Shown: one piece after another, positions 1,375 to 20,140 of the stretch | How positions within the stretch are numbered: position 1 is the first letter of the stretch | How the letters are laid out: every line of letters begins with the position of its first letter | From: Polyangiales bacterium | GTDB taxonomy: Bacteria; Myxococcota_A; Polyangia; Polyangiales; Ga0077539 | Length of the DNA stretch: 64,000 nucleotides | Assembly (NCBI GenBank): GCA_041389885.1 | Contig: JAWKRB010000006.1 | Coordinates: 131,101 to 195,100, forward strand | Direction of reading: 5' to 3' | Made by a program: the position numbers and the translations under genes | The notes under the pieces: generated by a model | Told to the model about the DNA's origin: nothing | What the model saw: the letters and a program-made list of their open reading frames with translations, nothing else | Databases searched by the model: none

Positions 1375-2346
1375 TCAGCCCGGCCGCAGCACGATCGCCA
1401 GCGACACCAGGCTCACCAACAGAATCACCGCCGCCAGGAGCACCACGAGCCAGTCGGCGCGGCCGGGCGGGGTCACCTGCGAGGGGCGCGACCGACGCTC
1501 CGCCGGCGCGCTCGCGCGCGGGGTGAGCGAGACGCGCGGCGAGCTCCGCGTCTCCTCCTCGGCGTCGCCGGGCTCCGGCTCCGACGACACCGCGGGCGCG
1601 GGCTCTGGGGGCGCGGGCGTGGGCGCGCGGTGGTCCTCGCCGCGGTCCAGCGCGCGAAGGAGGTCTTCGGTGGGGTCGACGTAGCGCAGCACGGTGCGCC
1701 CGAAGGTGAGCTCGTCGCCGTGCCGGAGCCGCCGCTCCGTCGAGGCGCGCCCCTGCACGACGACGCCGTTGCGGCTCCCGAGGTCACGGAGCAGCGCGCC
1801 CTCGCCGTCGCGCGAGACCTCCGCGTGGCGCCGCGAGCAGTCGCGGTCGTCGAGCACGATGTCGCAGTCCTCGCCGCGTCCGATGACCAGCGAGGCGGCG
1901 GGCGCGAGGGGCCAGAAGCGCCCAGCCTCGCGCGTGTTGACCAGCGCGAGGTGAGGCGGCGCGGCCTCGCCCCCGGCGTCGCGGATCGAGTCGAGCAGCA
2001 GGCGCCGCGCGATGCTCGCCGTGCGCTCGGGGGGATCGGGCGCGGCGAGCGATCCGCTCACGGTCAGCGCGAACTCGGCGAGGCAGACCACGTCGCCGTC
2101 GCGCACGAGCTTGCGCCGCCCCGGGGGCAGGAGCGCGCCGTTCACGCGCGTGCCGTTGGTGCTCCCCTCGTCGACCACGGCCACCTCGCTGCCGTCTACG
2201 TGAAACACCGCGTGCAGCTCGCTCACCGCGCGAGACGGCAGGCGCACGTCGACGGTGGGACCTCGGCCGACCTTCACCCTCGGCTGGTCCAGGGTGATCT
2301 CCTGGGGCGTCGCTCCGGGCGCCGTGATGGAGAGCTTCAGGGCCAC
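1375..2346 (-). CDS. FHA domain-containing protein with two FHA domains and a C-terminal transmembrane anchor
   Basis: Two regions with the FHA signature (GR..CDIVL....SRRHA and GRG..VDVRL....SELHA, each followed by an S/T-NGT-x-VNG block). The C-terminus is hydrophobic (WLVVLLAAVILLVSLVSLAIVL). Confidence 0.8.
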   Translation of the reverse strand: MALKLSITAPGATPQEITLDQPRVKVGRGPTVDVRLPSRAVSELHAVFHVDGSEVAVVDEGSTNGTRVNGALLPPGRRKLVRDGDVVCLAEFALTVSGSLAAPDPPERTASIARRLLLDSIRDAGGEAAPPHLALVNTREAGRFWPLAPAASLVIGRGEDCDIVLDDRDCSRRHAEVSRDGEGALLRDLGSRNGVVVQGRASTERRLRHGDELTFGRTVLRYVDPTEDLLRALDRGEDHRAPTPAPPEPAPAVSSEPEPGDAEEETRSSPRVSLTPRASAPAERRSRPSQVTPPGRADWLVVLLAAVILLVSLVSLAIVLRPG

Positions 2347-2546
2347 GGCGCGTCGCCTAGCAGCGCGCGAGGCGAGGGGTCAACTTCTGGCGCGGGCGAG
2401 CGCGCCGCGGCGGGGCGCGCCGCGCTCACCTCGCGCAGGAGCTCTGCGCGGGCGGCGCGTTCAATCGTCGACGAAAAGTTGGCTCTCGAATTCCGTCCGG
2501 TGCATGAGCGTTCGAGCACCGCAAGTCACGGAGGACGAGAGAGACC

Positions 2547-4355
2547 ATGGCGACCACAGCAGCCGCGGAGCGCCGCGACCCCACCGCACCTCGACGCCCC
2601 TTCAGGGCCCCGGTCGACATCGCCGACATCGTCGATCAGGAGATCTGGCAAGGCGACGCGCGCGACCTCTCCATCAGCGGGATGTCCGTGCAGAGCGCGA
2701 TGGTCCCCGAGGTGGGCGAGGAGCTCGCGTGCCGGTTTCGCCTCGAGGGGGGAGAGCAGATCGAGTCACGCGTCGAGGTCGTCTGGGCGCGCGAGGCCGG
2801 GGCGCGCGACGGCGAGTTCGGCGTGCGCTTCACCGCCCTCGACGCGAACCTCAAGGAGACCCTGCGCAAGGTGCTCCCGGCCCCCGTCGCGCCCGTCGCC
2901 GCGACGCCCGCGTCGGCGCCCACCGGGGGGATTCACGAGAACAGCAAGGTTCGCATCGTGATCCCCGGCATGGAGGCCCCGCTCCGCGCGAGGGTTCGCA
3001 CCCGCGCGCAGGGCGCGCTGATCGTCGGCAGCGACCTCACGTTCTTGAGGCTCGGCGAGCGCGTGGCCGTCGACGGCGGCAGCGAGCGCGCCGACGGGAA
3101 CATCACCGCCGTCGACATCGAGGTCGACAAGCGCAGCGGCGTGCCGCGGCTCATTCTCACGATCGATGGAGCGGGCGAGGCGCCGGGCGTCGTGCCGCCC
3201 GCGGTCGCTCCTGCGACGAGCGAAGCCGCCCCGCGCGTCGAGGTCGGCGAGGCCGAGCGAGACACCAAGGTCGAGGTCAAGCCCGCGTCGGAGGCCGCGC
3301 GCGCCGAGGCCGCGCCTCGCCCGGAGCGCGCGCGGGCCGCGCAGGAGACCCGGGTCCTGTCGACCCACGACGAGCACGAGCTCCCCGACGACGAGGCCTT
3401 CGACACGCGCACCTGGGCGCAGCGCGCCCTCGAGGCCGCGAAGGTGAACGCGGCTCGCCTCGCGGCGGCGGCGGGCCCCGCGGCGCGAGACGCCGGCAAG
3501 GCCGTGGGGGGCGCCGTCGACGCGCTCCGCGCGAGGGTGCGCGGCGGGGTCGCGTCGGTCGAGCAGCCGCGGCGAGAGCCCCGCGTCACGTTGAACCGGA
3601 ACGGTCTCCGACGGCAGCACGCGGAGGAGAGCGAAGGGGCCGCGGCGCCGGTGCGCAACCGACGCACGATGGTCCTCGCGGGTGTGGGCGGGGCCGCGGC
3701 GCTGGGCATCGTCGCCCTCGCCGTCACGGGCGGCCCGAAGCCGCAGGCGCCTCGCCCGCAGGTGACCATCGCCCGCGAGGGGCTCAACCCTGACGCGCTC
3801 AACGCCGCGGACGAGGCGGCGACCACGCCGATCACCCTCGGCGCGGCGCCCACGGCGATGCAGCCTGAGCCGCAGATGATCCAGGGCGAGGCGGGCAGCC
3901 TCCCCGTCGACCTCCGGGCGCCGGCGGCCGCGCCGAGCGAGACCGACCCCGTGCAGGTGACGCGGCGCGCGGCGCGGGCGGCGGCGAGCCCTCGCGCGAC
4001 CCCGACGACGCGGGTCGCCGCCGGGCGGATGACCCTGGGAAATCCGGCGATCCGCGCGGGGACGCTGATGCGAATCCGCACCGACGGGCCGATCACGCGG
4101 CTCGACGGCGTGGGCGCGCGAGGCGCAGACATCGTGATCTCGATCCCCGGGCGCCGCTCCCTCGACCTGGGCGCTCCGCTGGCGCGCCTTGACAGCCGCA
4201 TCGCGTCGTCCCGCGTGATGAACCGCTCGACAGGCGCCGTGCTCACCCTGCACTTCCGCACCGCCGCGCCCCCCTTCAGCGCCCGGGCCGTGGGGAACAA
4301 CCTCCACGTCGTGCTCGGCGCCACCCCCGGCGTCCGCGCCCGCGCCCGCCGCTGA
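2547..4355 (+). CDS. PilZ domain-containing protein (probable c-di-GMP binding), with one transmembrane segment
   Basis: The N-terminus carries an RxxxR motif followed by D-x-S-x-S-G (RRPFRAP...DLSISGMSV). A second PilZ-like block follows, then a single TM helix (MVLAGVGGAAALGIVALAV). Confidence 0.6.
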   Translation: MATTAAAERRDPTAPRRPFRAPVDIADIVDQEIWQGDARDLSISGMSVQSAMVPEVGEELACRFRLEGGEQIESRVEVVWAREAGARDGEFGVRFTALDANLKETLRKVLPAPVAPVAATPASAPTGGIHENSKVRIVIPGMEAPLRARVRTRAQGALIVGSDLTFLRLGERVAVDGGSERADGNITAVDIEVDKRSGVPRLILTIDGAGEAPGVVPPAVAPATSEAAPRVEVGEAERDTKVEVKPASEAARAEAAPRPERARAAQETRVLSTHDEHELPDDEAFDTRTWAQRALEAAKVNAARLAAAAGPAARDAGKAVGGAVDALRARVRGGVASVEQPRREPRVTLNRNGLRRQHAEESEGAAAPVRNRRTMVLAGVGGAAALGIVALAVTGGPKPQAPRPQVTIAREGLNPDALNAADEAATTPITLGAAPTAMQPEPQMIQGEAGSLPVDLRAPAAAPSETDPVQVTRRAARAAASPRATPTTRVAAGRMTLGNPAIRAGTLMRIRTDGPITRLDGVGARGADIVISIPGRRSLDLGAPLARLDSRIASSRVMNRSTGAVLTLHFRTAAPPFSARAVGNNLHVVLGATPGVRARARR

Positions 4356-6710: not shown

Positions 6711-7017
6711 GGCTGCTCTCGCCTTTGGGTGTGTTTGGATCAGCGCCCGGTGGAGGTCACGGCCCGAATGGCCCTGAACCCTCCCGCGCGCCGACATCTG
6801 TACGCCCGATGGCACCACAGTACTTCAACGGCGCGCAATCTTTTCCATCGAGTTCAGGGGTGGCGCCGCATCAATTGAATACCAGAAATGGTGATAATGA
6901 AATCCGTTCTTGAGATCTTCTCTAGACGGATCCGGGTGGGGCGCGCGTCGCTCGAAGAAGCCATCGACGGCGCCTGCCCGGTCGGCTACACCGTCGCCCC
7001 ATCGGAGGACACCGGTC

Positions 7018-8196
7018 ATGGAACACTGGGACATCGAGCGCCTGATCGCGCCCATCACGCTTGAGACCTTCTTCTCGGAGTACTGGGAGCGCAAGCCGCT
7101 GGTGGTGCGCCGGGGCCAGCCTGAGGCCTACAGCTCGCTGGTGTCGCTCGCCGACATCGACCAGGTCATCACCACGTTTCACCTCTCTCACCCCGACGTG
7201 ATGATGGCGAACGCGACCCGAGGGGTCACCGAGGCCGACTACACCTTCGACGGCGGCGCCGTCGACATCGTGCGGCTGTACCAGCAGTTCGCCGCGGGCT
7301 CGACGATCATCATGAACCAGCTCCACCGCTTCTTGCCCGCGCTGGGTGACCTGGTGCGGCGGGTGGAGCACCAGGTCAGCTCGAGGATGCAGACCAACAT
7401 CTACCTGACGCCGCGCGAGGCGCAGGGGCTGCGCATCCACTACGACTCCCACGACGTCTTCGTGCTCCAGGTGCACGGCGTGAAGCACTGGAGGCTCTAC
7501 GAGACCCAGGTGCCGCTGCCCTTTCGGGGACAGCAGTTCGGAGACTTTCCCGCCGAGCCCGGCGAGGTCGCGCAGGAGTTCGACCTCGAGCCCGGCGACG
7601 TGCTGTACATGCCCCGCGGGCTGATGCACGCGGCGTCGACCACGAGCGACACGTCGATGCACATCACCATGGGGGTGCTGCACACGACCTGGGTCGAGGT
7701 GATGATCGAGGCCCTCGCGCGCTTCGCCACCAGCGACGACGAGATGCGCGCCGGCCTCCCGCCGGGCTACGCCCGCGCGAGCTTCGACCGCGACGCGGCC
7801 GAGAAGCACTTTCGCAAGCTCTTCGAGCGCGCGGCCCAGGGGGTCGACTTCGAGGGCGCCTTCGAGGTCTTCGTCGACGACATCACGACCACCCGCGCCC
7901 CCCTGCTCCAGGGCCAGCTCCAGCAGGTCATGCGCCTCGCCGAGATCTCCCCCGACACCGTCGCCGGCGCCCGCCCCAACCTGCTCTACCGCGCCCAGAC
8001 CGACGACGAGGGGATCACCATCTCGTGCTCGGGGCGCGACATTCGCCTCCCCCCGCACGCCGCCGAGGCGGCCCTGTCGGCCCTCAGCACCGCCCGCTTC
8101 GTCGTGCGGGAGCTCCCCGGGGAGCTCGACGACGACGGCAAGGCCGTGCTCGTGCGCCGGCTGGTGCGCGAGGGCTTCGTGCGCGCAGATTTCTGA
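7018..8196 (+). CDS. JmjC / cupin-4 family Fe(II)/2-oxoglutarate oxygenase (ribosomal-oxygenase / YcfD-like)
   Basis: ATG with GGAGGA upstream. Double-stranded beta-helix motifs HYDSHDVFVLQVHGVKHW ... MHITMGVLH (HxD...H facial triad). Overall architecture resembles the bacterial JmjC hydroxylases. Confidence 0.75.
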   Translation: MEHWDIERLIAPITLETFFSEYWERKPLVVRRGQPEAYSSLVSLADIDQVITTFHLSHPDVMMANATRGVTEADYTFDGGAVDIVRLYQQFAAGSTIIMNQLHRFLPALGDLVRRVEHQVSSRMQTNIYLTPREAQGLRIHYDSHDVFVLQVHGVKHWRLYETQVPLPFRGQQFGDFPAEPGEVAQEFDLEPGDVLYMPRGLMHAASTTSDTSMHITMGVLHTTWVEVMIEALARFATSDDEMRAGLPPGYARASFDRDAAEKHFRKLFERAAQGVDFEGAFEVFVDDITTTRAPLLQGQLQQVMRLAEISPDTVAGARPNLLYRAQTDDEGITISCSGRDIRLPPHAAEAALSALSTARFVVRELPGELDDDGKAVLVRRLVREGFVRADF

Positions 8197-8310
8197 CCGC
8201 CCACCTCCCTCGCGCGGCTTCACGCCGGAGCCTCCCCGTCGTAGCATCCCCGCCGCGCGCCGACTGAATGGCCATTCAGTCAGCGCCCCGAAACGACGAG
8301 GTTGAACGAC

Positions 8311-11268
8311 ATGGCGAACGAGCTCCGCTTCGATGGAAGGGTCGCGATCGTGACGGGGGCCGGCAACGGCCTCGGGCGGTCGCACGCGTTGCTGCTGGCG
8401 AGCAGGGGGGCGAAGGTCGTGGTGAACGACCTCGGTGGCGCCCACACCGGCGGCGGCCGATCGAGCGCCGCGGCCGACGCGGTGGTCGCGGAGATTCGCG
8501 CGGCGGGCGGCGAGGCGGTGGCGAACTACGACTCGGTCGAGGACGGCGCGAGCATCGTGAAGTCGGCCATCGACGCCTTCGGCCGCGTCGATATCGTGGT
8601 CAACAACGCCGGCATCCTCCGCGACGTCTCCTTCGCGAAGATGACCGAGCAGGACTGGGAGCTCGTCTACCGCGTGCACGTCCTGGGCGCGTACCGGGTG
8701 ACCGCCGCGGCCTGGCCCTACCTGCGCGAGCAGAAGTACGGCCGCGTGATCTTCACCTCCAGCGCCGCGGGCATCTACGGCAACTTCGGCCAGGCCAACT
8801 ACAGCATGGCCAAGCTGGGCGTCGCGGGCTTCGCGAACACCCTCGCCATCGAGGGCCGCAAGAGCAACGTGCTGGTCAACACCATCGCGCCCATCGCGGG
8901 CTCGCGCATGACCGAGACCGTGCTCCCCAAGGAGCTCCTCGACGCCCTCAAGCCCGAGTACGTGAGCGCCCTCGTCGCCGTGCTGGGCCACGAGAGCTCG
9001 GAAGAGACCGGCGGGCTCTTCGAGGTCGGGGGCGGCTTCTACTCCAAGCTGCGCTGGGAGCGCACCGAGGGCGCGACCTTTCGCCTCGGCCGCGCGCTCT
9101 CTCCCGAAGACGTGCGCGGTCGCTGGGGCGACATCACCTCATTCGCGAAGACCACGCACCCCGGCTCCGTCGCCGAGTCGATGCAGAGCATCATGAACAA
9201 CGTCGAGGCCGGGCCCTCGCGCGGCGGCAACGAGTTCATCGACGTCGACGCGGCGCTCGGGTACGAGTTCCCCGAATTCACCTCGCGGCACGACGAGCGC
9301 GACATGGCGCTCTACGCCCTCGGCGTGGGCGCGGGGCGCGACCCCCTCGACGCCGCGGACCTCCGCTACGTCTTCGAGCTGGGCGACGGCTTTCAGGCCC
9401 TCCCGACCTACGCTGTGGTGCCGGTGGTCAACGCGATCCTCGAGATGGGCAAGCGCGGCGAGAGCGCGCCGGGCCTCAATTTCGGCCTCGACCGGGTGCT
9501 CCACGGCGAGCAGTACACCGAGCTCCTCGCGCCCTGGCCCACCAAGGCGAAGCTCAAGCACCGCAGCCGCGTGAAGGCCATCTACGACAAGGGCAAGGGC
9601 GCCGTCGTCGTCAACGAGACCAAGACCTTCGACGAGTCGGGCGCGCTCCTCGCCGTCAACGAGGTCAGCACCTTCGTGCGCGGCGCCGGTGGCTTCGGCG
9701 GCGACCGCGGGCCGGCCTCGGACGTCGCCGTGCCCGAGCGCGCCCCCGACGCCGTGATCGAAGAGAAGACCGCCGAGAATCAGGCCCTGCTCTACCGCCT
9801 CTCGGGCGACTGGAACCCCCTCCACGTCGACCCCGGCTTCGCCCAGGCCTTCGGCTTTCCCCGCCCGATCCTCCACGGCCTGTGCTCCTTCGGCTACGCG
9901 GGCCGCCACGTGCTCCGCGCCTTCGCGAACAACGACGGGCGGCTCTTCAAGAGCATCCGCGTGCGCTTCGCCGACACCGTGCTCCCCGGCGAGACCCTCG
10001 TCACCGAGATGTGGCGCGAGGGTGACCGGGTGATCCTCCGGTGCAAGGTGAAGGAGCGCGACAAGGCCGTGATCACCAACGCGGTAGTCGAGCTGCACCG
10101 CGAGCTCCCGGCCTCGAAGCCCGCGCCCGCGGCCGCTCCGCCGGCGAAGGCCGCGCCCCAGGCCGAGCCCACCAGCGCTGACATCTTCGCGGGGATGGGA
10201 CGCTTCCTCGGCCGCAACGCCGAGATCGCGAAGAAGGTCGGCAAGGTCTTTCAGTTCAAGCTGTCGGCGCCGAACAGCGTGTGGACCGTCGACCTCAAGG
10301 CCAACGCCGTCACCGCGGGGGAGGGCGCGAAGCCCGAGTGCACCCTCGACCTCTCCGACGCCGACTTCATGGACATGTGCACCGGCAAGGCCAACCCCAT
10401 GAAGCTGTTCACCAGCGGCAAGCTGAAGATCAGCGGCGACGTCATGGCGAGCCAGAAGCTCGACTTTCTCCAGAAGATGGACCCGAAGGACGTGCTCGAC
10501 GCGATGCGCGAGCGCGTCGGAGGATCGGCGCCCGCAGCGCCCGCGGCGCCCGCGGCGAGCGGGGTCACGAGCGGCGCGGTCTTCGCGGCGATCGGCGGCT
10601 ACCTCGCGGCGCACCCCGAGGTCGCGAAGTCGGTCGGCAAGGTCTACCAGTTCAGGCTCAGCGACCCCGCGAGCGTCTGGACCCTCGACCTCAAGGCGGG
10701 GACGGTGAGCGAGGGTGAGACGGCGAAGCCCGAGTGCACCCTCGACCTCAGCGACGCAGACTTCATGGCGATGACGGCGGGCAAGGCCAACCCCATGAAG
10801 CTGTTCACCAGCGGTAAGCTGAAGATCAGCGGCGATGTCATGGCGAGCCAGAAGCTCGACTTTCTCCAGAAGATCGACCGCAGCGCGCTCGAGGCCGCCC
10901 CCGCCGCGGCGCCCGTCGCGGCGGCGGCGCCCGCGACCACGGGCCCCGCGGCGGCGGGCGCGCCCGCGATCTTCAAGGCCGTGGCCGAGCGCCTCGCGGC
11001 GAACCCCAGCCTCGCCGAGGAGCTCGGCGCGGTCACGGTGTTCAACGTGCTCGAGCCCGACGGGCAGTGGTCCATCGCGGGCGCGTCGGTCACGCAGGGC
11101 AAGGCGCCCGGCGCGACGGCCTTCCTCTCCCTGCGCGACGAGGACCTGGTGGCGCTCGCGCGGGGCGAGGTCGACGCGCGCTCGCTCTACCAGCAGGGGA
11201 GGCTCCGGGTGGACGGCGACGTTCGCGCGGCGCATCGCATCGGATTCATCAAGGGCACCGCGGGCTGA
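8311..11268 (+). CDS. multifunctional beta-oxidation enzyme (MFE-2-like): SDR dehydrogenase + MaoC-like enoyl-CoA hydratase + three SCP2 sterol-carrier domains
   Basis: N-terminal SDR (TGAGNGLGR Rossmann motif, NNAG, YSMAK). Hot-dog hydratase ([24 protein letters not shown]). Two near-identical SCP2 domains ([18 protein letters not shown]... and [18 protein letters not shown]..., both ending [25 protein letters not shown]) plus a third, divergent SCP2-like domain. ATG at 8311 is preceded by GAGG. Confidence 0.85.
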
Positions 11269-11314
11269 ACGGCGCCAAGACCCTCCAACAACGACTCAAG
11301 CGAAGGAGAATCAA

Positions 11315-12493
11315 ATGGGACGTCGCGTGAATGTCATCGGTGTCGGGATGGTGAAGTTCCAGAAGCCCGGCGCGAGCGACGAGTACAACGTCATGGCGTC
11401 AGGGGCGATCCGCGCGGCGCTCGCCGACGCGGGGGTGCCCTTCGACGCCATCGAGCAGGCCTACGCGGGCTACGTCTTCGGCGACTCGACCTGCGGGCAG
11501 CGGGCGGTCTACGAGGTCGGGCTCACGGGCATCCCCGTGTTCAACGTGAACAACAACTGCTCGACGGGCTCGACCGCGCTGATGCTCGCGCGACAGGCCG
11601 TCGAGGGCGGGCTCGCGGAGTGCGTCCTCGCCGTCGGCTTCGAGCAGATGCAGAAGGGCGCCCTCGAGGCCAAGTGGTCCGACCGGACCAACCCCCTCGA
11701 CAAGCACGTCGGCACGATGAACGACCAGCAGGGCTTCACCCAGGCCCCCGCGGCGGCGCAGATGTTCGGCGGCGCCGGCCGCGAGTACCGCTGGCGCCAC
11801 GGCACCAAGCGCGAGACCTTCGCGCAGGTGAGCGTGAAGGCGCGGCAGCACGCGAGCCGCAACCCCCTCGCGCTCTTCCCCGAGACCCTCACCCTCGAGC
11901 AGGTCATGAGCTCCCCCGAGGTGTTCGACCCGCTCACCCGCTACCAGTGCTGCCCGCCCACCTGCGGCGCCGCCGCGGCCGTCGTGTGCAGCGATGAGTT
12001 CGCGCGAAAGTACGGCATCGCGAACCCCGTCTACATCGCCGCCCAGGCGATGACCACGGACTACGGGTCGAGCTTCGGCGACTCGATGATCAAGATGGTG
12101 GGCTACGACATGGCCAAGGCCGCCGCCGATCAGGTCTACGAGCGCGCGGGCCTCGGCCCCAAGGACGTGCAGGTCATCGAGCTGCACGACTGCTTTACAG
12201 CGAACGAGATCCTCACCTACGAGGCCCTCGGGCTCTGCGGCGAGGGCGAGGCCGAGAAGCTCATCGAGGCCGGCGACAACACCTACGGCGGGCGTTGGGT
12301 GACCAACCCCTCTGGGGGGCTGCTCTCCAAGGGCCACCCCCTCGGCGCGACAGGGCTGGCGCAGTGCACCGAGCTCGTGTGGCAGCTCCGCGGCCAGGCC
12401 GATCGCCGTCAGGTCGAGGGGGCGCGCGTCGCGCTCCAGCACAACCTGGGCCTCGGCGGCGCCTGCGTCGTCACGATGTACCGCCGCGACTGA
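11315..12493 (+). CDS. SCPx-type thiolase (nonspecific lipid-transfer protein thiolase domain; 3-ketoacyl-CoA thiolase)
   Basis: ATG preceded by GAAGGAG. Thiolase motifs [11 protein letters not shown] (active Cys), [28 protein letters not shown]. The upstream part of track ORF 10835..12493 is Arg-rich antisense-type junk. Confidence 0.85.
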
Positions 12494-12508: not shown

Positions 12509-13582
<1,074 letters not shown>

Positions 13583-13715
13583 GCGCTCTCAGGTACCACA
13601 AGGGAGCTTGTTCCGCCGCGCGGCGTGTGATCCGATGATCGACGCCAGTCCGTCAAGCAAGAGAGCGCGTTCGCGCAAAGCCGAGACGGTCGCGCAGCGC
13701 CAAGAGAGACGGTTC

Positions 13716-15199
13716 ATGGCTGACACGAAGACGACGAAGAAGCCCGCGGCGAAGAAGCCCGCGGTGACGAAGAAGACGACCGCCGCGAAGAAGGCGGCCG
13801 TCGCGAAGCCCGCGGCGAAGAAGCCCGCGGCGAAGAAGTCCACCGTGGCGAAGGCGACCGTCGCGAAGAAGGCGACGACCGCGAAGAAGCCCGTCGCGAA
13901 GAAGCCCGTCGCGAAGAAGGCGACCGTCGTGAAGAAGGCGACCGCTGCGAAGAAGCCCGTGGCGAAGAAGGGACGACCGCAACTTCTGCGAAGCCTGCCG
14001 CGAAGAAGGCGACGACCGCGAAGAAGCCCGTCACGAAGAAGAAGCCCGTGGCGAAGAAGAAGCCCGTGGCGAAGAAGGCGACCGCTGCGAAGCCTGCCGC
14101 GAAGAAGGCGACCGTCACGAAGAAGGCGACCGTCACGAAGCCCGCCGCGAAGAAGGCGACGACCGCGAAGAAGGCGACCGCTGCGAAGCCTGCCGCGAAG
14201 AAAGCGACGACCGCGAAGAAGCCCGTGGCGAAGAAGGCGACCGCTGCGAAGCCTGCCGCGAAGAAAGCGACGACCGCGAAGAAGCCCGTGGCGAAGAAGG
14301 CGACCGCTGCGAAGAAGGCGACCGTCGCGAAGAAGGTGACCGTCGCGAAGAAGGCGACCGCTGCGAAGAAGGCGACCGCTGCGAAGAAGGCGACCGTCGC
14401 GAAGAAGGTGACCGTCGCGAAGAAGGCGACCGTCGCGAAGAAGGCGACCGTTGCGAAGAAGGCGACCGTCGCGAAGAAGGCGACCGTCGCGAAGCCCGTC
14501 GCGAAGAAGGCGACCGTCGCGAAGCCCGCGGCGAAGAAGACCATCGCCGCGAAGGAGACGACCGCCGCCGAGGAGCTCGTCGTGCAGCCCGAGCCGGTCG
14601 CGACGAAGGCGACCGCCGTGAACGAGTCGAGCGCGACGAAGCCCAGGGCGAAGGCCGCCGTTGCGAAGAAGGTCGTCTCCGAGGCAGACGGCGGTCCGTC
14701 GGGCGAGGTCGCCGAGCGCGCGGCGCCCCTCCGCCCGAAGACCGAGCGACGGACCGGGAACAAGGCAGCGCCGGCCCCGACCAACGGGGCTGCGTCCGAG
14801 GTGAGCGGGCAGCAGCTGAGGCTCGAGAGCGCCCGCGCGCTGGCCAGGCTCGTCGCCGCGTCGGGCCTTGAGAAGAAGGCCGACCGCATCGACATCCTCG
14901 ATGTCACCGAGAAGGTCGACTACGCCGACTTCCTGGTGCTCATGTCGGGGCGCTCGGACCGGCAGGTGCAGTCGATCGCCGGCGGGATCGAGGAGGCGCT
15001 GAAGCTCCTCGGGCACCGACCCGCCTCGGTCGAGGGCATGGCGCAGGGGCACTGGGTGATCGTCGACTACGGCGATGTCATCGTGCACATCTTTCAAGAG
15101 GAGGCGCGGCGCTACTACGACCTCGACGGCCTCTGGCTCGACGCGCGGAGGGTCCCCTTCGAGAGCGCGTCCCGCCCGTCTGCCTCGCCCCCCGCGTGA
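13716..15199 (+). CDS. rsfS: ribosome silencing factor RsfS (Iojap) fused to a long N-terminal Lys/Ala-rich histone-H1/AlgP-like repeat domain; the reading frame shifts once inside the repeats (about nt 13972)
   Basis: The C-terminal approximately 110 aa (ADRIDILDVTEKVDYADFLVLMSGRSDRQVQSIAGGIEEALK...VIVDYGDVIVHIFQEEARRYYDLDGLW) matches the RsfS/DUF143 fold. It is preceded in the same frame (14048..15199) by about 170 aa of AKK(A/P)(T/A/V) repeats. A further approximately 85 aa of the same repeats lie upstream in another frame (13716..~13972). The conserved rsfS-rlmH neighbourhood is present. Confidence 0.6.
13720..14560 (+). repeat. coding tandem repeats (15-30 nt units, gcgaagaag-gcg/ccc-acc/gtc...) encoding KKxAxAKK arrays
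   Basis: Obvious nucleotide-level periodicity. The opposite strand yields spurious FFAAVAFFA ORFs. Confidence 0.8.
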
Positions 15200-15642
15200 A
15201 GCTGGTCATCGTCGCGGTCGGAAAGGTCAAGGAGGCCGGCCTCCGCGACCTCCTCGACGAGTACTACGGGCGCACCCGGCGCTACGCCGAGCTCGTCGAG
15301 CACGAGATCAAGGACGACCGAGAGGACCGCGTCGTCGCGGCCTTCGACGCGGCGATCGCCAAGGCCGGGCCCCGCGCCGAGCTCGTCGCCCTCGAGGTGG
15401 GCGGCGACGCCCTCAGCAGCGAGGGATTCTCCCGACGCGTCGACGACGCGTGGCAGCGAGCCGCGGTGCTCGTGTTCGCGATCGGAGGATCCGAGGGGCT
15501 GCCGCGCGCGGTATCGTCCCGGGCCCGGTGGCGACTCTCGCTCGGGTCGATGACCCTGCCCCACCGCCTCGCACGCCTCATCCTCGCCGAGCAGGTGTAC
15601 CGCGCGTTCACCATCCTCAAGGGCGAGCCCTACAACAAGTGA
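15196..15642 (+). CDS. rlmH: 23S rRNA (pseudouridine1915-N3)-methyltransferase RlmH (SPOUT family)
   Basis: MKLVIVAVGK...LVFAIGGSEGL...SLGSMTLPHRLARLILAEQVYRA motifs are typical of RlmH. The GTG start overlaps the rsfS stop (GTGA). Confidence 0.85.
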   Translation: MKLVIVAVGKVKEAGLRDLLDEYYGRTRRYAELVEHEIKDDREDRVVAAFDAAIAKAGPRAELVALEVGGDALSSEGFSRRVDDAWQRAAVLVFAIGGSEGLPRAVSSRARWRLSLGSMTLPHRLARLILAEQVYRAFTILKGEPYNK

Positions 15643-15646
15643 TCCC

Positions 15647-17068
15647 ATGACAGAACCGAAGCCCATGCGCCCCAAGGCGGTCCTCGTCGGCGTGCACCTC
15701 CCCGACGTCTCCGAGGGCGAGCACGCGTCCTCCCTCGCCGAGCTCAGCCGGCTCGTGCACACGCTGGGGTACGACGTCGTCGGTCAGGTGAGCCAGCGCC
15801 GATCGCACCTCTCCGCGAGCGCCGTGGTCGGCGCCGGAAAGCTCAAGGACCTCGCGCTGTACACCGACGGCGTCGGCGTGGTCCCCAGCAGCGCGCCGGT
15901 GAAGAAGCGCCGCATCGACCGAGAGGTGACCGAGGCGCCCGACGCGCCCGAGTCCCTCGACGCAGACGACGCCCTCGACCCTGAGCTCGACGACGATGAG
16001 GAGGTCGGCGAGCCCATTCGCACCGACGGCGACACCGAGCTCGTCGCCGTGGACCACGACCTCACCCCCACGCAAGCGCGAAACCTCGAGCGCGCGACGG
16101 GCGCGACGGTGATGGACCGCTCGGCGGTGATCCTCGAGATCTTTCACCGCCACGCCCGCTCCCGCGAGGCGCGGCTGCAGGTCGAGATCGCGCGGCTGAA
16201 CTACCTCGCGCCCAGGCTGCGCGAGGGCGTCGGCGGCGACCGCCAGCGCGGCGGCATCGGCGGCAAGGGCGCCGGCGAGAGCGCCCTGGAGCTCGACCGA
16301 CGGCGCATCCGCGATCGCGTCGCCGAGCTGCGCCGCGAGCTCGACTCGATCTCGCACGAGCACGACGTGCGGCGCGCGCGCCGCAAGGAGCAGCTGCGCG
16401 TCGCCCTGGTGGGCTACACCAACGCCGGCAAGAGCTCGCTCATGCGCGCGCTCACGGGCAGCGAGGTGTACGTCGCCGACAAGCTCTTCGCGACCCTCGA
16501 CACCACCGTGCGCACCCTGCACCCGCCGAGCGCGCCCAAGGTGCTGGTGTCAGACACCGTGGGCTTCATCAAGAAGCTGCCGCACGACCTGGTGGCGTCG
16601 TTTCGCTCGACCCTCGACGAGGCCCGAGAGGCCTCGCTGCTGCTGCACGTCGTCGACGGGAGCGACCCCGCGTGGCCGTCGCAGCACCAGGTGACGAGGA
16701 CCGTCCTCGAAGAGATCCACGCGGGGGACATCGACACGCTGCTGGTGATCAACAAGGCCGACCGCATCGCCGACGACGAGCTCGCGGCCCTCGCCGAGGC
16801 CCACCCCGACGCCGTGCTGCTCAGCGCCAAGCGACCCGACGACGTCGCGCGGCTGCGCGAGCTGATCCTCTCGCGCATGGAGGCCGAGATGGACGAGGCG
16901 ACGGTGGACGTCCCCTTCGGCAAGGAGCGCGCGCTGCCGCTGATCCACGAGTCGTGCAGGGTGATCGAAGAGGCGTGGGACGAGCGCGGCGGACACTTTC
17001 GTGTGCGCGCGCTCCCCGACGTGCTGGCCAGGCTGAAGGCCGCCCTCGGAGGAGGGGGCGGCGCGTAA
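15647..17068 (+). CDS. hflX: GTPase HflX
   Basis: HflX N-terminal domain, followed by G-domain motifs GYTNAGKSSL (G1), DTVGF (G3), NKAD (G4), SAK (G5). A long acidic insertion (approximately PDAPESLDADDALDPELDDDEEVGEP) lies in the N-terminal domain. Confidence 0.9.
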   Translation: MTEPKPMRPKAVLVGVHLPDVSEGEHASSLAELSRLVHTLGYDVVGQVSQRRSHLSASAVVGAGKLKDLALYTDGVGVVPSSAPVKKRRIDREVTEAPDAPESLDADDALDPELDDDEEVGEPIRTDGDTELVAVDHDLTPTQARNLERATGATVMDRSAVILEIFHRHARSREARLQVEIARLNYLAPRLREGVGGDRQRGGIGGKGAGESALELDRRRIRDRVAELRRELDSISHEHDVRRARRKEQLRVALVGYTNAGKSSLMRALTGSEVYVADKLFATLDTTVRTLHPPSAPKVLVSDTVGFIKKLPHDLVASFRSTLDEAREASLLLHVVDGSDPAWPSQHQVTRTVLEEIHAGDIDTLLVINKADRIADDELAALAEAHPDAVLLSAKRPDDVARLRELILSRMEAEMDEATVDVPFGKERALPLIHESCRVIEEAWDERGGHFRVRALPDVLARLKAALGGGGGA

Positions 17069-17569: not shown

Positions 17570-20140
17570 ATGCTCCGGCTCCCCATCGACGACGCGCTCC
17601 CCGAGCTCCTCGCGGCGCTCAAGGCGCGCGGCGCCGCGGTGCTCGAGGCGCCCCCGGGCGCGGGCAAGACCACCCGCGTCCCCGTGGCGGTGCTCGACGC
17701 CGGACTGGCGGGCGACAAGGAGGTCGTGGTGCTCGAGCCGCGGCGGCTCGCCGCGCGCATGGCCGCCCGCCGGGTGGCCGAAGAGCGCGGCGAGCGCGTC
17801 GGCGAGACCGTGGGCTACCAGGTGCGCTTCGACGACGTGAGCAGCGCGCGCACGCGCGTGCGCTTCGTGACCGAGGGGATCCTCACCCGCCGACTCCTGA
17901 GCGACCCCGAGCTCAGGGACGTCGGCGTGGTGCTCCTCGACGAGTTTCACGAGAGGCACCTCCACGGCGACGTCGCGCTCGCGATGCTGCGCAGGCTCCA
18001 GCGGGGCGCGAGGCCAGACCTCCGCGTCGCGGCGATGTCGGCGACCCTCGACGGCGCCGCGGTGGCGGACTTTCTCGGTGAGCCTGGAGCTCCAGCCCCA
18101 TGCGTGCGCTCGGAGGGCCGGCGCTTCGAGGTCGCGATCGAGCACGCGCGCAGCGCGGACGACCGACCGCTCTCGGCGCGGGTCGCGTCGGCGGTGCGGG
18201 CGCTCTGCGACGAGGGGCTCGACGGCGACGTGCTGGTGTTCCTCCCGGGCGCGGCGGAGATCCGACGCGCGATGGGCGCGTGCGCGGCGGTCGCGCAGCA
18301 GCACGACCTCATGGTCGTTCCGCTCCACGGCGAGCTGCCCCCCGCCGAGCAGGATCGGGCGATCGCGCCCGCGACGCGCCGCAAGGTGATCCTCTCGACG
18401 AACGTGGCCGAGACCAGCGTGACCATCGACGGCGTCGTCGCGGTGATCGACGGCGGCCTCGCGCGCGTCGCCGGTCACGCGGCCTGGTCGGGCCTGCCCA
18501 CCCTCCGCGAGTCGCGCGTCTCCAAGGCCGCTGCGACGCAGCGCGCCGGGCGCGCCGGACGCACCCGCCCAGGCCGCTGCGTGCGGCTGTACACCCGCCA
18601 CGATTTCGACACCCGCCCTGAGTACGAGCGCGCCGAGGTGCTGCGCCTCGACCTGGCCGAGACCGCCCTCGCGCTGCACGCGGGGGGCGAGCGCGACCTC
18701 CGGGCCTTCCCCTGGTTCGAGGCGCCACCCGGCGCCAGCGTCGACGCCGCCGACGCGCTGCTGCGCCGCCTGGGCGCCGTGGGCGAGGGCGGTGGGATCA
18801 CCCGCCTGGGTCGGGAAATGGCGCGCCTCCCCCTGCACCCCCGGCTAGCGCGGCTGGTGCTCGAGGCCGAGGCGAGGGGCGTCGCGCGAGAGGGGTGCAC
18901 CGCGGCGGCGATCCTCGGAGAGCGCGAGCTGGACCTCGGGCGGCGCGGCGGTCCCGGCGGCGCCCGGCGGGGACCGCGAGAGCACGGCCCCTCGGACCTC
19001 GCGGCGTCGATGGCGTCCTTTCACGAGGCCGCCGCGCTCCGCTTCGACGCCAACTCCCTGCGGCACATGGACCTCGACGTCGGCGCAGCCCTCGCCGTCG
19101 ACCGCGCCCGCAAGCAGGTCGAGCGCGCGCTGCGCGGTCGCGCGCCGGGTGGGTCGAGCGTCTCTCCCGGCGACGCTGACGAGGCCCTGCGCGTGGCGGT
19201 GCTCGCGGCGTACCCCGACCGCGTCGCGCGTCGGCAGCGCGGCGCGGAGCTCGCCCTGGTCGTCGGGGGCACGGCCACGCTCTCGCCTCAGAGCGAGGTG
19301 CAAGACGCGCCCTTCCTCGTCGCCGTCGACGCCGAGGAGCGGAGCGACGGACGGGGCCGCGCCGTGACCGTGCGGACGGCGAGCGCGATCGAGCCCGAGT
19401 GGCTCCTCGAGCTCTTTCCCGACGCGATTCGAGAGACCGTCGAGACGCGCTGGGTCGCGGCCGACGAGCGCGTGGAGGCCGTGGCGAGGCTCTCGTACGA
19501 GTCCCTGGTGCTCGATGAGACCCGCGGGCCCAAGACCCCCGAGGCCGACGCCGCCGTGGCCCAGAGGCTCGGCGACGAGGCCGCCGCCCGGGGCGTGTAT
19601 CACTTCGTCGACGACCGCGACGCCCTCGACCGATTCATGGCGCGGGTGACCTTCGCGTCGGAGCGCTCGAGCGCCGTGCGGCCCTTCGACGAGGCGCGCG
19701 CGGCGCGGGTGCTGCGCGCGATGTGCGAGGGCCGGAGGTCCTTCGCCGAGCTGCGCTCGGCGGGGCTGCTCGGGGCGCTCCGAGACGACCTCGAGGGCAG
19801 GGAGCTGCAGCTCGTCGAGCGCCTCGCGCCCGAGCGGGTGACCCTGGGCGGAGGGCGCGCCGTGCGGGTGAACTACGAGCGCGCCAAGGCCCCGTGGATC
19901 GAGTCGCGGCTGCAAGACTTCTTCGGCATGGCCGAGGGGCCCAGGGTGGGAGACGCGGCGCTGGTGCTGCACCTCCTCGCGCCCAACCACCGGGCGGTGC
20001 AGGTGACCACCGACCTCGCCGGTTTCTGGGTGCGGCACTACCCCGCGATTCGAAGAGAACTGTGTCGGCAGTACCCCCGGCACCTGTGGCCCGAGGACGG
20101 GCGCGTCGCGAAGCCTCCGCCGCCCAACCGCGTGCGCTGA
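17570..20140 (+). CDS. hrpB: ATP-dependent RNA helicase HrpB (DEAH-box)
   Basis: Walker A PPGAGKTT, DEFHER (DEAH variant), SATL, and QRAGRAGR in motif VI. Length and C-terminal HrpB domain are consistent with the family. Confidence 0.9.
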   Translation: MLRLPIDDALPELLAALKARGAAVLEAPPGAGKTTRVPVAVLDAGLAGDKEVVVLEPRRLAARMAARRVAEERGERVGETVGYQVRFDDVSSARTRVRFVTEGILTRRLLSDPELRDVGVVLLDEFHERHLHGDVALAMLRRLQRGARPDLRVAAMSATLDGAAVADFLGEPGAPAPCVRSEGRRFEVAIEHARSADDRPLSARVASAVRALCDEGLDGDVLVFLPGAAEIRRAMGACAAVAQQHDLMVVPLHGELPPAEQDRAIAPATRRKVILSTNVAETSVTIDGVVAVIDGGLARVAGHAAWSGLPTLRESRVSKAAATQRAGRAGRTRPGRCVRLYTRHDFDTRPEYERAEVLRLDLAETALALHAGGERDLRAFPWFEAPPGASVDAADALLRRLGAVGEGGGITRLGREMARLPLHPRLARLVLEAEARGVAREGCTAAAILGERELDLGRRGGPGGARRGPREHGPSDLAASMASFHEAAALRFDANSLRHMDLDVGAALAVDRARKQVERALRGRAPGGSSVSPGDADEALRVAVLAAYPDRVARRQRGAELALVVGGTATLSPQSEVQDAPFLVAVDAEERSDGRGRAVTVRTASAIEPEWLLELFPDAIRETVETRWVAADERVEAVARLSYESLVLDETRGPKTPEADAAVAQRLGDEAAARGVYHFVDDRDALDRFMARVTFASERSSAVRPFDEARAARVLRAMCEGRRSFAELRSAGLLGALRDDLEGRELQLVERLAPERVTLGGGRAVRVNYERAKAPWIESRLQDFFGMAEGPRVGDAALVLHLLAPNHRAVQVTTDLAGFWVRHYPAIRRELCRQYPRHLWPEDGRVAKPPPPNRVR

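Follow-up and report, generated by a model that had tools for sequence, protein, structure and literature searches.

Does a bacterial ribosome silencing factor (RsfS) carry a long histone-like tail within the same protein and, if so, what might such a tail do? The question is raised by an rsfS gene at 13716-15199 (+) in a 64-kb stretch of DNA from a Polyangiales bacterium (assembly GCA_041389885.1, contig JAWKRB010000006.1, positions 131,101 to 195,100; hereafter the window, whose positions are used as coordinates throughout), in which a preliminary description had noticed an RsfS domain preceded by Lys/Ala repeats. RsfS, which binds uL14, opposes subunit association, and takes part in late 50S assembly, is a near-universal control of the availability of the large ribosomal subunit; all versions studied so far consist of the bare domain, about 110 amino acids (aa) long. 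We found that the tailed RsfS is a new architecture in this well-known family and is conserved across a clade, and that the copy in the window is broken in frame; its function we infer below.

The folded part of the protein is a bona fide RsfS (Iojap) domain, as the preliminary description had recognized. In the 383-aa open reading frame (ORF) at 14048-15199 (+), Pfam PF02410 matches aa 274-363 with 99.8 bits (E = 1e-28, cut-off 21.6 bits), and the NCBIfam equivalog TIGR00090 matches with 101.8 bits (cut-off 56.9 bits). Solved RsfS chains in the PDB align end to end with the domain, the best being that of M. tuberculosis (4wcw, E = 7.5e-22), and further matches include the RsfS of E. coli and S. 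aureus and human MALSU1. An AlphaFold2 (AF2) model of the 383-aa ORF, built on 46 homologues, has a predicted local distance difference test score (pLDDT) above 90 at residues 254-366, with helices and strands in the expected order. Foldseek matched this model to E. coli RsfS in pre-50S particles with a template modeling (TM) score of 0.88-0.90 and a root-mean-square deviation of 1.5-1.7 Å, and to M. tuberculosis 4wcw with E = 2.5e-10. These profile, PDB, AF2, and Foldseek matches place the alpha/beta domain at 14807-15145 (+). The domain keeps the motif RRYYDLDGLW, the counterpart in the alignment of xYYxLExLW in the RsfS of B. halodurans and M. tuberculosis; from the match offset alone (query 15 to chain 8), its YY would fall at about residues 97-98 of the chain in 6sj6, and Tyr98 of S. 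aureus RsfS is the contact of uL14 Arg97. The GC content at third codon positions (GC3) of the domain is 0.95, and the C-terminal 132-aa RsfS segment (14801-15196) is acidic, with an isoelectric point (pI) of 5.3. The gene closes with a short C-terminal tail and a TGA stop (15146-15199, stop at 15197-15199, +), the stop overlapping the GTG start of rlmH at 15196 in the sequence GTGA.

Compared with bacterial RsfS/YbeB (E. coli, S. aureus, and M. tuberculosis Rv2420c), the window protein has in common the domain family, the fold, the C-terminal YY-x-L-x-x-LW motif, and the pairing with rlmH (ybeA). In those bacteria RsfS binds uL14 through a negatively charged beta-sheet, in a pocket that includes bL19 and helix H95 of 23S ribosomal RNA (rRNA), and occludes intersubunit bridge B8 (PMC7125091). 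Because family, fold, motif, and gene pairing all match, the window RsfS is expected, by analogy, to bind uL14 and block bridge B8 in the same way. What sets it apart is its length: solved or characterized bacterial RsfS proteins have 105-152 aa and no N-terminal tail, in line with the earlier statement that RsfS is normally short, whereas the window protein has about 365 extra N-terminal residues.

These extra residues consist of a Lys/Ala repeat in two pieces and a linker. The upstream piece, segment A (13716-13970, +, 85 codons, phase 0; MADTKTTKKPAAKK...AAKKPVAKK), starts at an ATG at 13716 that opens a frame encoding MADTKTTKKPAAKKPAVTKK..., and then runs through AKK(A/P)(T/V/A) repeats for its 85 codons; it has a GC3 of 0.98, no stops, and all 13 of its AAGAAG hexamers (up to 13965) in phase 0. 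The downstream piece, segment B (13971-14539, +, 190 codons), is built of 15- and 18-nucleotide (nt) units in the phase of the RsfS domain, with a GC3 of 0.92 and 27 of 27 AAGAAG hexamers (from 14003) in phase 2; adjacent units at 14278-14511 are near-identical. The RsfS frame is open back to about 13722 and is Lys/Ala-like only from 13971, and the 383-aa ORF, which starts at 14048, includes about 165 aa of repeat. Between repeat and domain lies an 89-aa linker (14540-14806, +), which by its translation is non-repetitive and of mixed charge and has AF2 block-mean pLDDT values of about 40-55. Over residues 1-250 of the 383-aa ORF, the model has pLDDT below 55 and no secondary structure, which predicts disorder.

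The preliminary description had the repeat fused in frame to RsfS, and the 190 repeat codons that share the RsfS phase confirm this. It had also put the tail at about 255 aa if an out-of-frame upstream segment were counted; that segment is real (85 aa), and the total is larger than estimated, 275 aa once a missing base is restored. The corrected protein has 494 aa, 50.8 kDa, and a pI of 10.6, and its repeat contains 92 Lys with a net charge of +91. It is an N-terminal polycation (about 275 aa) followed by a disordered linker (about 89 aa) and a normal acidic RsfS domain, the first two making up the N-terminal extension of about 365 aa. We found no second Lys-rich stretch of this kind in the six frames of the 64-kb window.

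The Frame Break and the Translation Start

The two repeat segments are separated by a frame break at 13969-13973 (+), where one C is missing at about 13971 and the sequence reads aagaagGGAcgacc where other repeat units read aagaagGCGacgacc. The phases of the AAGAAG hexamers confine the switch to between 13965 and 14003, and repeat spacings depart from multiples of three in just two cases (173 and 89 nt), both of which span 13970-13986. For comparison we used a locus scan with one genome per GTDB species, which yielded at least 80 related loci, the best match among those listed being 75% identical (L-numbers are locus labels, and "closest" refers to the matches listed). Exact-sequence look-ups with the 383-aa ORF, RlmH, and TsaD matched no record. 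The closest two of all relatives compared, L001 (from a Polyangiales metagenome-assembled genome) and L081 (a metagenome contig, equal to homologue P0005), have the same leader DNA and ATG as the window and an unbroken ORF. In L001 this ORF (2233-3399) encodes 380 aa, with 253 aa of Lys/Ala repeat and then RsfS, and in L081 it encodes 255 aa, with 129 aa of repeat. Since both relatives are intact, and since the upstream piece keeps the repeat phase, a GC3 of 0.98, and freedom from stops, the break is private to the window sequence and does not mark a gene boundary; it stems either from an error in assembly or sequencing or from a mutation of very recent date. Assemblies often go wrong by indels in GC-rich repeats, and we favor an error over a real mutation clearly, if not overwhelmingly.

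The ATG at 13716-13718 (+) is taken as the ancestral start of rsfS, as its context (ERRF-M-A-D/E-x-K) and leader DNA are common to L001 and L081, and it would be the natural translation start. The 383-aa product in a mechanical ORF list arises because a GTG at 14048-14050 (+), within a PVAKK unit of the repeat, is the first ATG, GTG, or TTG in the RsfS frame after the upstream stop; this GTG is probably not the natural start, and the relatives begin at the ATG equivalent to 13716.

A real frameshift, which would make this rsfS a fresh pseudogene in the strain or leave it weakly expressed from an internal start such as GTG 14048, is possible, if doubtful. The base is, after all, absent from the given sequence, the deletion lies outside any long homopolymer, and E. 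coli does not need rsfS to grow in rich medium, so that loss of the gene might be tolerable. On this account the product from the ATG would be the 85-aa Lys/Ala peptide plus 122 aa of out-of-frame Arg/Pro/Ser sequence, with a stop at 14337-14339. Against it stand the intact genes in L001 and L081 and the state of the upstream segment, whose GC3 of 0.98, lack of stops, and perfect repeat phase would make any inactivation extremely recent at most; moreover, frame 0 after the shift has a third-position GC of only about 0.5 and is not a selected coding frame, and no Shine-Dalgarno-like GGAGG precedes GTG 14048. Alternatively, the locus could hold two genes, a standalone histone-like Lys/Ala protein and then a normal short rsfS. 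The mechanical ORFs 13608/13716-14339 and 14048-15199 do overlap, and some public RsfS gene calls are short (P0035 with 133 aa, P0006 with 139 aa), but the RsfS frame is stop-free from 13722 to the domain, the repeat runs for 190 codons in that frame, tail and domain are a single ORF in relatives, and the locus of P0035 itself (L010) has a 200-aa in-frame basic extension opening with ATG. The preliminary description had named a stop codon between the two parts as the observation that would undo the fusion; both L001 and L081 carry tail and domain in one ORF, and the two-gene reading, which we hold to be extremely improbable, is largely refuted.

Other accounts of the break and its surroundings were rejected. 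Programmed ribosomal frameshifting finds no slippery heptamer of the form X XXY YYZ in the sequence at the shift (GCG AAG AAG GGA CGA), and phase variation does not fit repeat units of 15 and 18 nt, so that slippage keeps the frame; L001 and L081 are unshifted. The frame-0 continuation past 13971 was likewise dismissed as a selected product because of its third-position GC of about 0.5. The ORFs at 13589-15097 (-), 13714-14907 (-), and 13608-14339 (+) were discarded as genes and regarded as side effects of the repeat and of high GC content. As a side observation, the frame of ATG 13716 past the break (13971-14339) spells a protamine-like sequence rich in Arg, Pro, and Ser (RRRRPRRSPSRRR...), since a one-base shift turns AAG AAG GCG into AGA AGG CG.

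Basic Tails on RsfS in Related Bacteria

To place the tail in its family, we drew on three collections: the related loci described above, a homologue search with linker plus domain as query (1783 homologues, with tail statistics from the best 120), and an exhaustive HMMER search through 1.84 billion representatives of clusters at 50% identity (12,346 RsfS-like proteins, of which the best 150 were analyzed). All of the at least 80 listed loci are labeled Polyangiales, Polyangiaceae, or Myxococcota, with cultured representatives in Minicystis rosea, Polyangium spp., and Labilithrix.

The best 120 homologues, all Polyangia-type, are 133-299 aa long, compared with about 110 aa for a bare domain. 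Medians for their N-terminal extension are 81 aa in length and +13 in net charge, and the extension reaches at least 30 aa in 108 of the 120. The closest among them (74-76% domain identity) bear AKK/PAKK repeats. Most of the at least 80 listed loci have a basic extension in frame upstream of the RsfS domain, and a scan of the sequence of related loci, 460 kb in all, placed all Lys-rich low-complexity stretches directly 5' of the RsfS domain, in its frame. Among the best 150 of the 12,346 proteins, 69 are extended N-terminally by 40 aa or more, and 57 bear a tail with a net charge of at least +8; the latter fall from 24 of the 30 nearest to the query to five of the 30 farthest. The window extension, at about 365 aa, is the longest among the proteins compared.

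Tail sequences vary within the clade. Polyangiaceae-type relatives have Arg/Lys-rich tails that are not repetitive. A motif of the form RP(R/K)(I/L)(K/R)(S/T)SH (RPRIKSSH) occurs about 15-25 residues from the N-terminus of the basic tail in 45 of the 120 nearest homologues (among P0037-P0120; loci such as L021, L030, and L034), and KEKKKNAALRVAK is common to another 14 of the 120; both motifs are absent from the window protein. Several RsfS proteins at greater distance (42-52% domain identity; P0175, P0187, P0189, P0204, and P0257) carry independently built KK-repeat tails followed by a linker. The longest of these, 238 aa with 72 Lys and a net charge of +57, is that of P0175 (L082, 3001-4110), whose gene lies in a different context, grpE-dnaK-rsfS-purU. 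A different kind of extension was noticed in P0234, in which a nicotinate-nucleotide adenylyltransferase-like (NadD-like) N-terminal region, assigned by eye, is fused to RsfS.

As judged from these sequences, a basic, disordered N-terminal tail is a clade-level trait, and the histone-like Lys/Ala array is one form of it. The preliminary description had asked whether relatives share the extension or lack it altogether: within the clade, a basic N-terminal extension is the norm. Its view of the fusion as unusual holds against characterized RsfS proteins, and does not hold among Polyangia-type relatives, where a tail is normal. To this near-universal factor, the Polyangia, which are developmentally complex and have large genomes, have added, across the whole clade, a disordered and polycationic tail that ranges from 80 to about 365 aa. 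The literature searched contained no description of an RsfS with a lysine-rich or disordered N-terminal tail, and public records call such proteins only "ribosome silencing factor" or "ribosome-associated protein". Public gene calls also often cut the tail: P0001 is given as 218 aa, compared with the 380-aa ORF from the conserved ATG in L001, and the NCBI call P0035 as 133 aa, compared with the 200-aa in-frame basic extension with ATG in L010. The annotation of rsfS in high-GC myxobacteria therefore needs care, as calls drop tails and repeat indels split the gene.

Likeness to Other Tailed Proteins and Possible Function of the Tail

The preliminary description compared the tail to the C-terminal domain of eukaryotic histone H1 and to Pseudomonas AlgP. 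The resemblance stands as one of composition and falls as one of homology. The H1 C-terminal domain and chlamydial Hc2 are, like the window tail, Lys/Ala/Pro/Thr-rich, disordered, and polycationic, but the match to HC2 (PF07382) is weak, reaching 36.9 bits on the 383-aa ORF against a cut-off of 40 bits, and NF038052 (Hc2) and NF038053 (Burkholderia-type H1-like protein) score 22.3 and 29.4 bits against cut-offs of 135 and 80 bits. The upstream segment is also below the cut-offs (23.9 bits for HC2 and 26.9 bits for NF038052), and neither this segment nor the 383-aa ORF matches the linker-histone winged-helix domain PF00538 at E <= 0.01. Whereas linker histone H1 has this winged-helix globular domain, the AF2 model places no folded element in residues 1-250. 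With scores below the cut-offs and no globular domain, we rejected membership in the H1/H5, Hc2, and NF038053/AlgP-like families; on sequence grounds, what the tail shares with H1, Hc2, and AlgP is composition and physics rather than ancestry.

Pseudomonas AlgP/PhaF share with the window protein a disordered Lys/Ala/Pro tail of at least 150 aa, with high positive charge and variable length, attached to a cargo-binding domain (PMC9239181). Their tail is C-terminal with a KPAA unit, whereas that of the window protein is N-terminal with AKKAT(V/A) and AKKP(V/A) units, and AlgP joins its array to a helical N-terminal domain, while the window repeat is attached instead to a predicted ribosome-binding RsfS. 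AlgP/PhaF tails bind polyanions (DNA and polyphosphate, polyP), and KPAA tails link polyhydroxyalkanoate (PHA) or polyP granules to the nucleoid; AlgP, with a 154-aa KPAA tail of net charge +55, sits on polyP granules in starvation, and its tail is needed for granule spacing (PMC9239181).

Two further comparisons concern the cargo and the habit of adding tails. Human mitochondrial MALSU1 (C7orf30) is likewise an RsfS-family domain on the large subunit whose core is extended by extra mass; the protein has 228-234 aa, and its RsfS domain starts at around residue 100. Its extra mass consists of folded partner proteins, the MALSU1-L0R8F8-mtACP module preventing premature subunit association (bioRxiv 10.1101/2020.06.28.176446), whereas that of the window protein is a polycationic repeat; the one elaboration has no relation to the other and is independent of it. 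High-GC bacteria are known to append basic tails to housekeeping factors: actinobacterial TopA, mycobacterial HupB, Streptomyces HupS, and M. xanthus IF3 (Dsg) all carry a basic low-complexity tail on a housekeeping factor in a high-GC lineage, as the window gene does. None of these is a large-subunit anti-association factor, and their tails are shorter and less charged than the window tail. The extension of M. xanthus IF3 (more than 60 aa) matters in vegetative and developmental functions and not for viability (PMC2241858), and lysine repeats on actinobacterial TopA raise processivity on a polyanionic substrate, DNA (PMC7398561).

The window gene is a housekeeping rsfS, and we consider it somewhat probable that its polycationic tail acts as a non-specific rRNA anchor and strengthens binding to the 50S subunit. 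The RsfS domain would dock on uL14, as in other bacteria, which would hold the +91 tail at very high local concentration beside 23S rRNA, where it may bind the rRNA backbone non-specifically. Such an electrostatic anchor (by fly-casting and avidity) would speed capture of free or immature 50S subunits and slow their release, with a stronger block to 30S joining as the result, and the length of the array (129 aa in L081, 253 aa in L001, and about 365 aa in the window protein) could tune the strength of the anchor. N-terminally His-tagged RsfS forms a complex with 50S, so the N-terminus tolerates additions (PMC7125091), and the raised processivity of TopA with lysine repeats (PMC7398561) would be comparable to the proposed rRNA anchoring. 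If the tail does modulate 50S binding or localization, it would represent a naturally occurring and tunable extension of ribosome silencing and a bacterial parallel to the enlargement of mitochondrial MALSU1 by partner proteins.

Three points weigh against the anchor. The differing short motifs carried by sub-clades hint at specific partners or docking sites rather than pure electrostatics; rRNA, DNA, polyP, and mRNA are all polyanions, and a +91 tail would bind any of them; and the window sequence as it stands cannot yield a full-length protein, so that the fusion is conceptual for this copy. We also looked for signs of electrostatic autoinhibition or of co-evolution between tail and domain. 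The median domain charge is -5 in tail-bearing and tail-less homologues alike (p = 0.22), and the idea that tail-bearing RsfS domains are more acidic was rejected.

One alternative, in line with the proposal of the preliminary description that the tail could tether silenced 50S subunits to the nucleoid or RNA, is that the tail acts in trans: with the 50S subunit held by the RsfS domain, the H1-like tail would bind nucleoid DNA or polyP granules, by analogy with PhaF and AlgP, and idle or immature subunits would be parked there in starvation or sporulation. The AlgP tail on polyP granules in starvation is of the same kind in composition and charge as the window tail, and RsfS is active in starvation and stationary phase (PMC7125091). 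Yet a tail covalently placed beside about 2900 nt of rRNA should bind in cis and out-compete DNA or polyP in trans, the HC2 and H1-like models score below their cut-offs, and the tail of many relatives, shorter at about 80 aa, rich in Arg, and holding conserved motifs, does not look like DNA-wrapping repeats; we judge tethering unlikely. A variant in which the tail turns RsfS into a multivalent scaffold, docking on uL14 while the +90 tail bridges other subunits, nucleoid DNA, or polyP, would have idle 50S subunits condense into a storage phase in starvation or sporulation, with the rapidly evolving repeat number setting the condensation threshold; we regard it as distinctly unlikely. The tail might instead be without function, a neutral, runaway low-complexity expansion tolerated at the solvent-exposed N-terminus of RsfS. 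The roughly three-fold variation in array length among the close relatives, the recent duplication seen in the near-identical units at 14278-14511, and the equal domain charge with and without a tail would all fit. However, a strongly basic extension persists over a deep clade in which tail sequences no longer align, AAG-rich sequence is kept in a genome of 73% GC with a GC3 of 0.92-0.98, Lys-rich tails occur solely on RsfS in the 460 kb of related DNA and the window, and some tails hold conserved short motifs; we judge neutrality very unlikely.

Gene Neighborhood

The gene is the orthologous housekeeping rsfS of a Polyangia-type myxobacterium and not an extra paralogue, because its position in the order tsaD/rsfS-rlmH(-hflX) is conserved. 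The divergent upstream neighbor is tsaD (12509-13582, -; Pfam TsaD, E = 1.7e-87). Downstream, rlmH, encoding a SPOUT 23S rRNA methyltransferase (15196-15642, +; Pfam SPOUT_MTase, E = 1.2e-39), overlaps rsfS by 4 nt, and hflX, encoding a 50S-binding GTPase (15647-17068, +; Pfam GTP-bdg_N, GTP-bdg_M, and MMR_HSR1), begins 5 nt past the rlmH stop. An rlmH gene lies directly downstream of rsfS in at least 36 related loci; the order tsaD/rsfS-rlmH is found in L001-L013, L015, and L019, and rsfS-rlmH-hflX in L001 and L081.

Within the intergenic region between tsaD and rsfS, a promoter-like block of about 30 nt (CTTGTT-N17-TCCGATG; 13607-13637, +) is near-identical in L001 and L081 and recognizable in L002-L008, and is probably the rsfS promoter. 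A scan with the sigma-70 consensus called no site, this block included. Terminator-like matches were at chance level (four found, 3.2 expected) and on the wrong strand. Several large minus-strand ORFs nearby gave no Pfam match on scanning and are probably shadows of plus-strand genes.

Some neighboring genes may be mentioned in their own right. Directly after hflX lies a gene for an HrpB-type DEAH helicase (17570-20140, +; DEAD, Helicase_C, and HrpB_C). A few kb from rsfS-rlmH-hflX, at 6910-8196 (+), is a gene for a JmjC_2 (PF08007) protein, a family that we take to be that of the bacterial ribosomal oxygenase YcfD/RoxA. Finally, a 988-aa ORF at 8302-11268 (+) combines a short-chain dehydrogenase, a hydratase-2/MaoC domain, and three SCP2 stretches in the order of the eukaryote-type multifunctional enzyme 2, and is followed by a thiolase ORF (10835-12493, +) in an SCPx-like arrangement.

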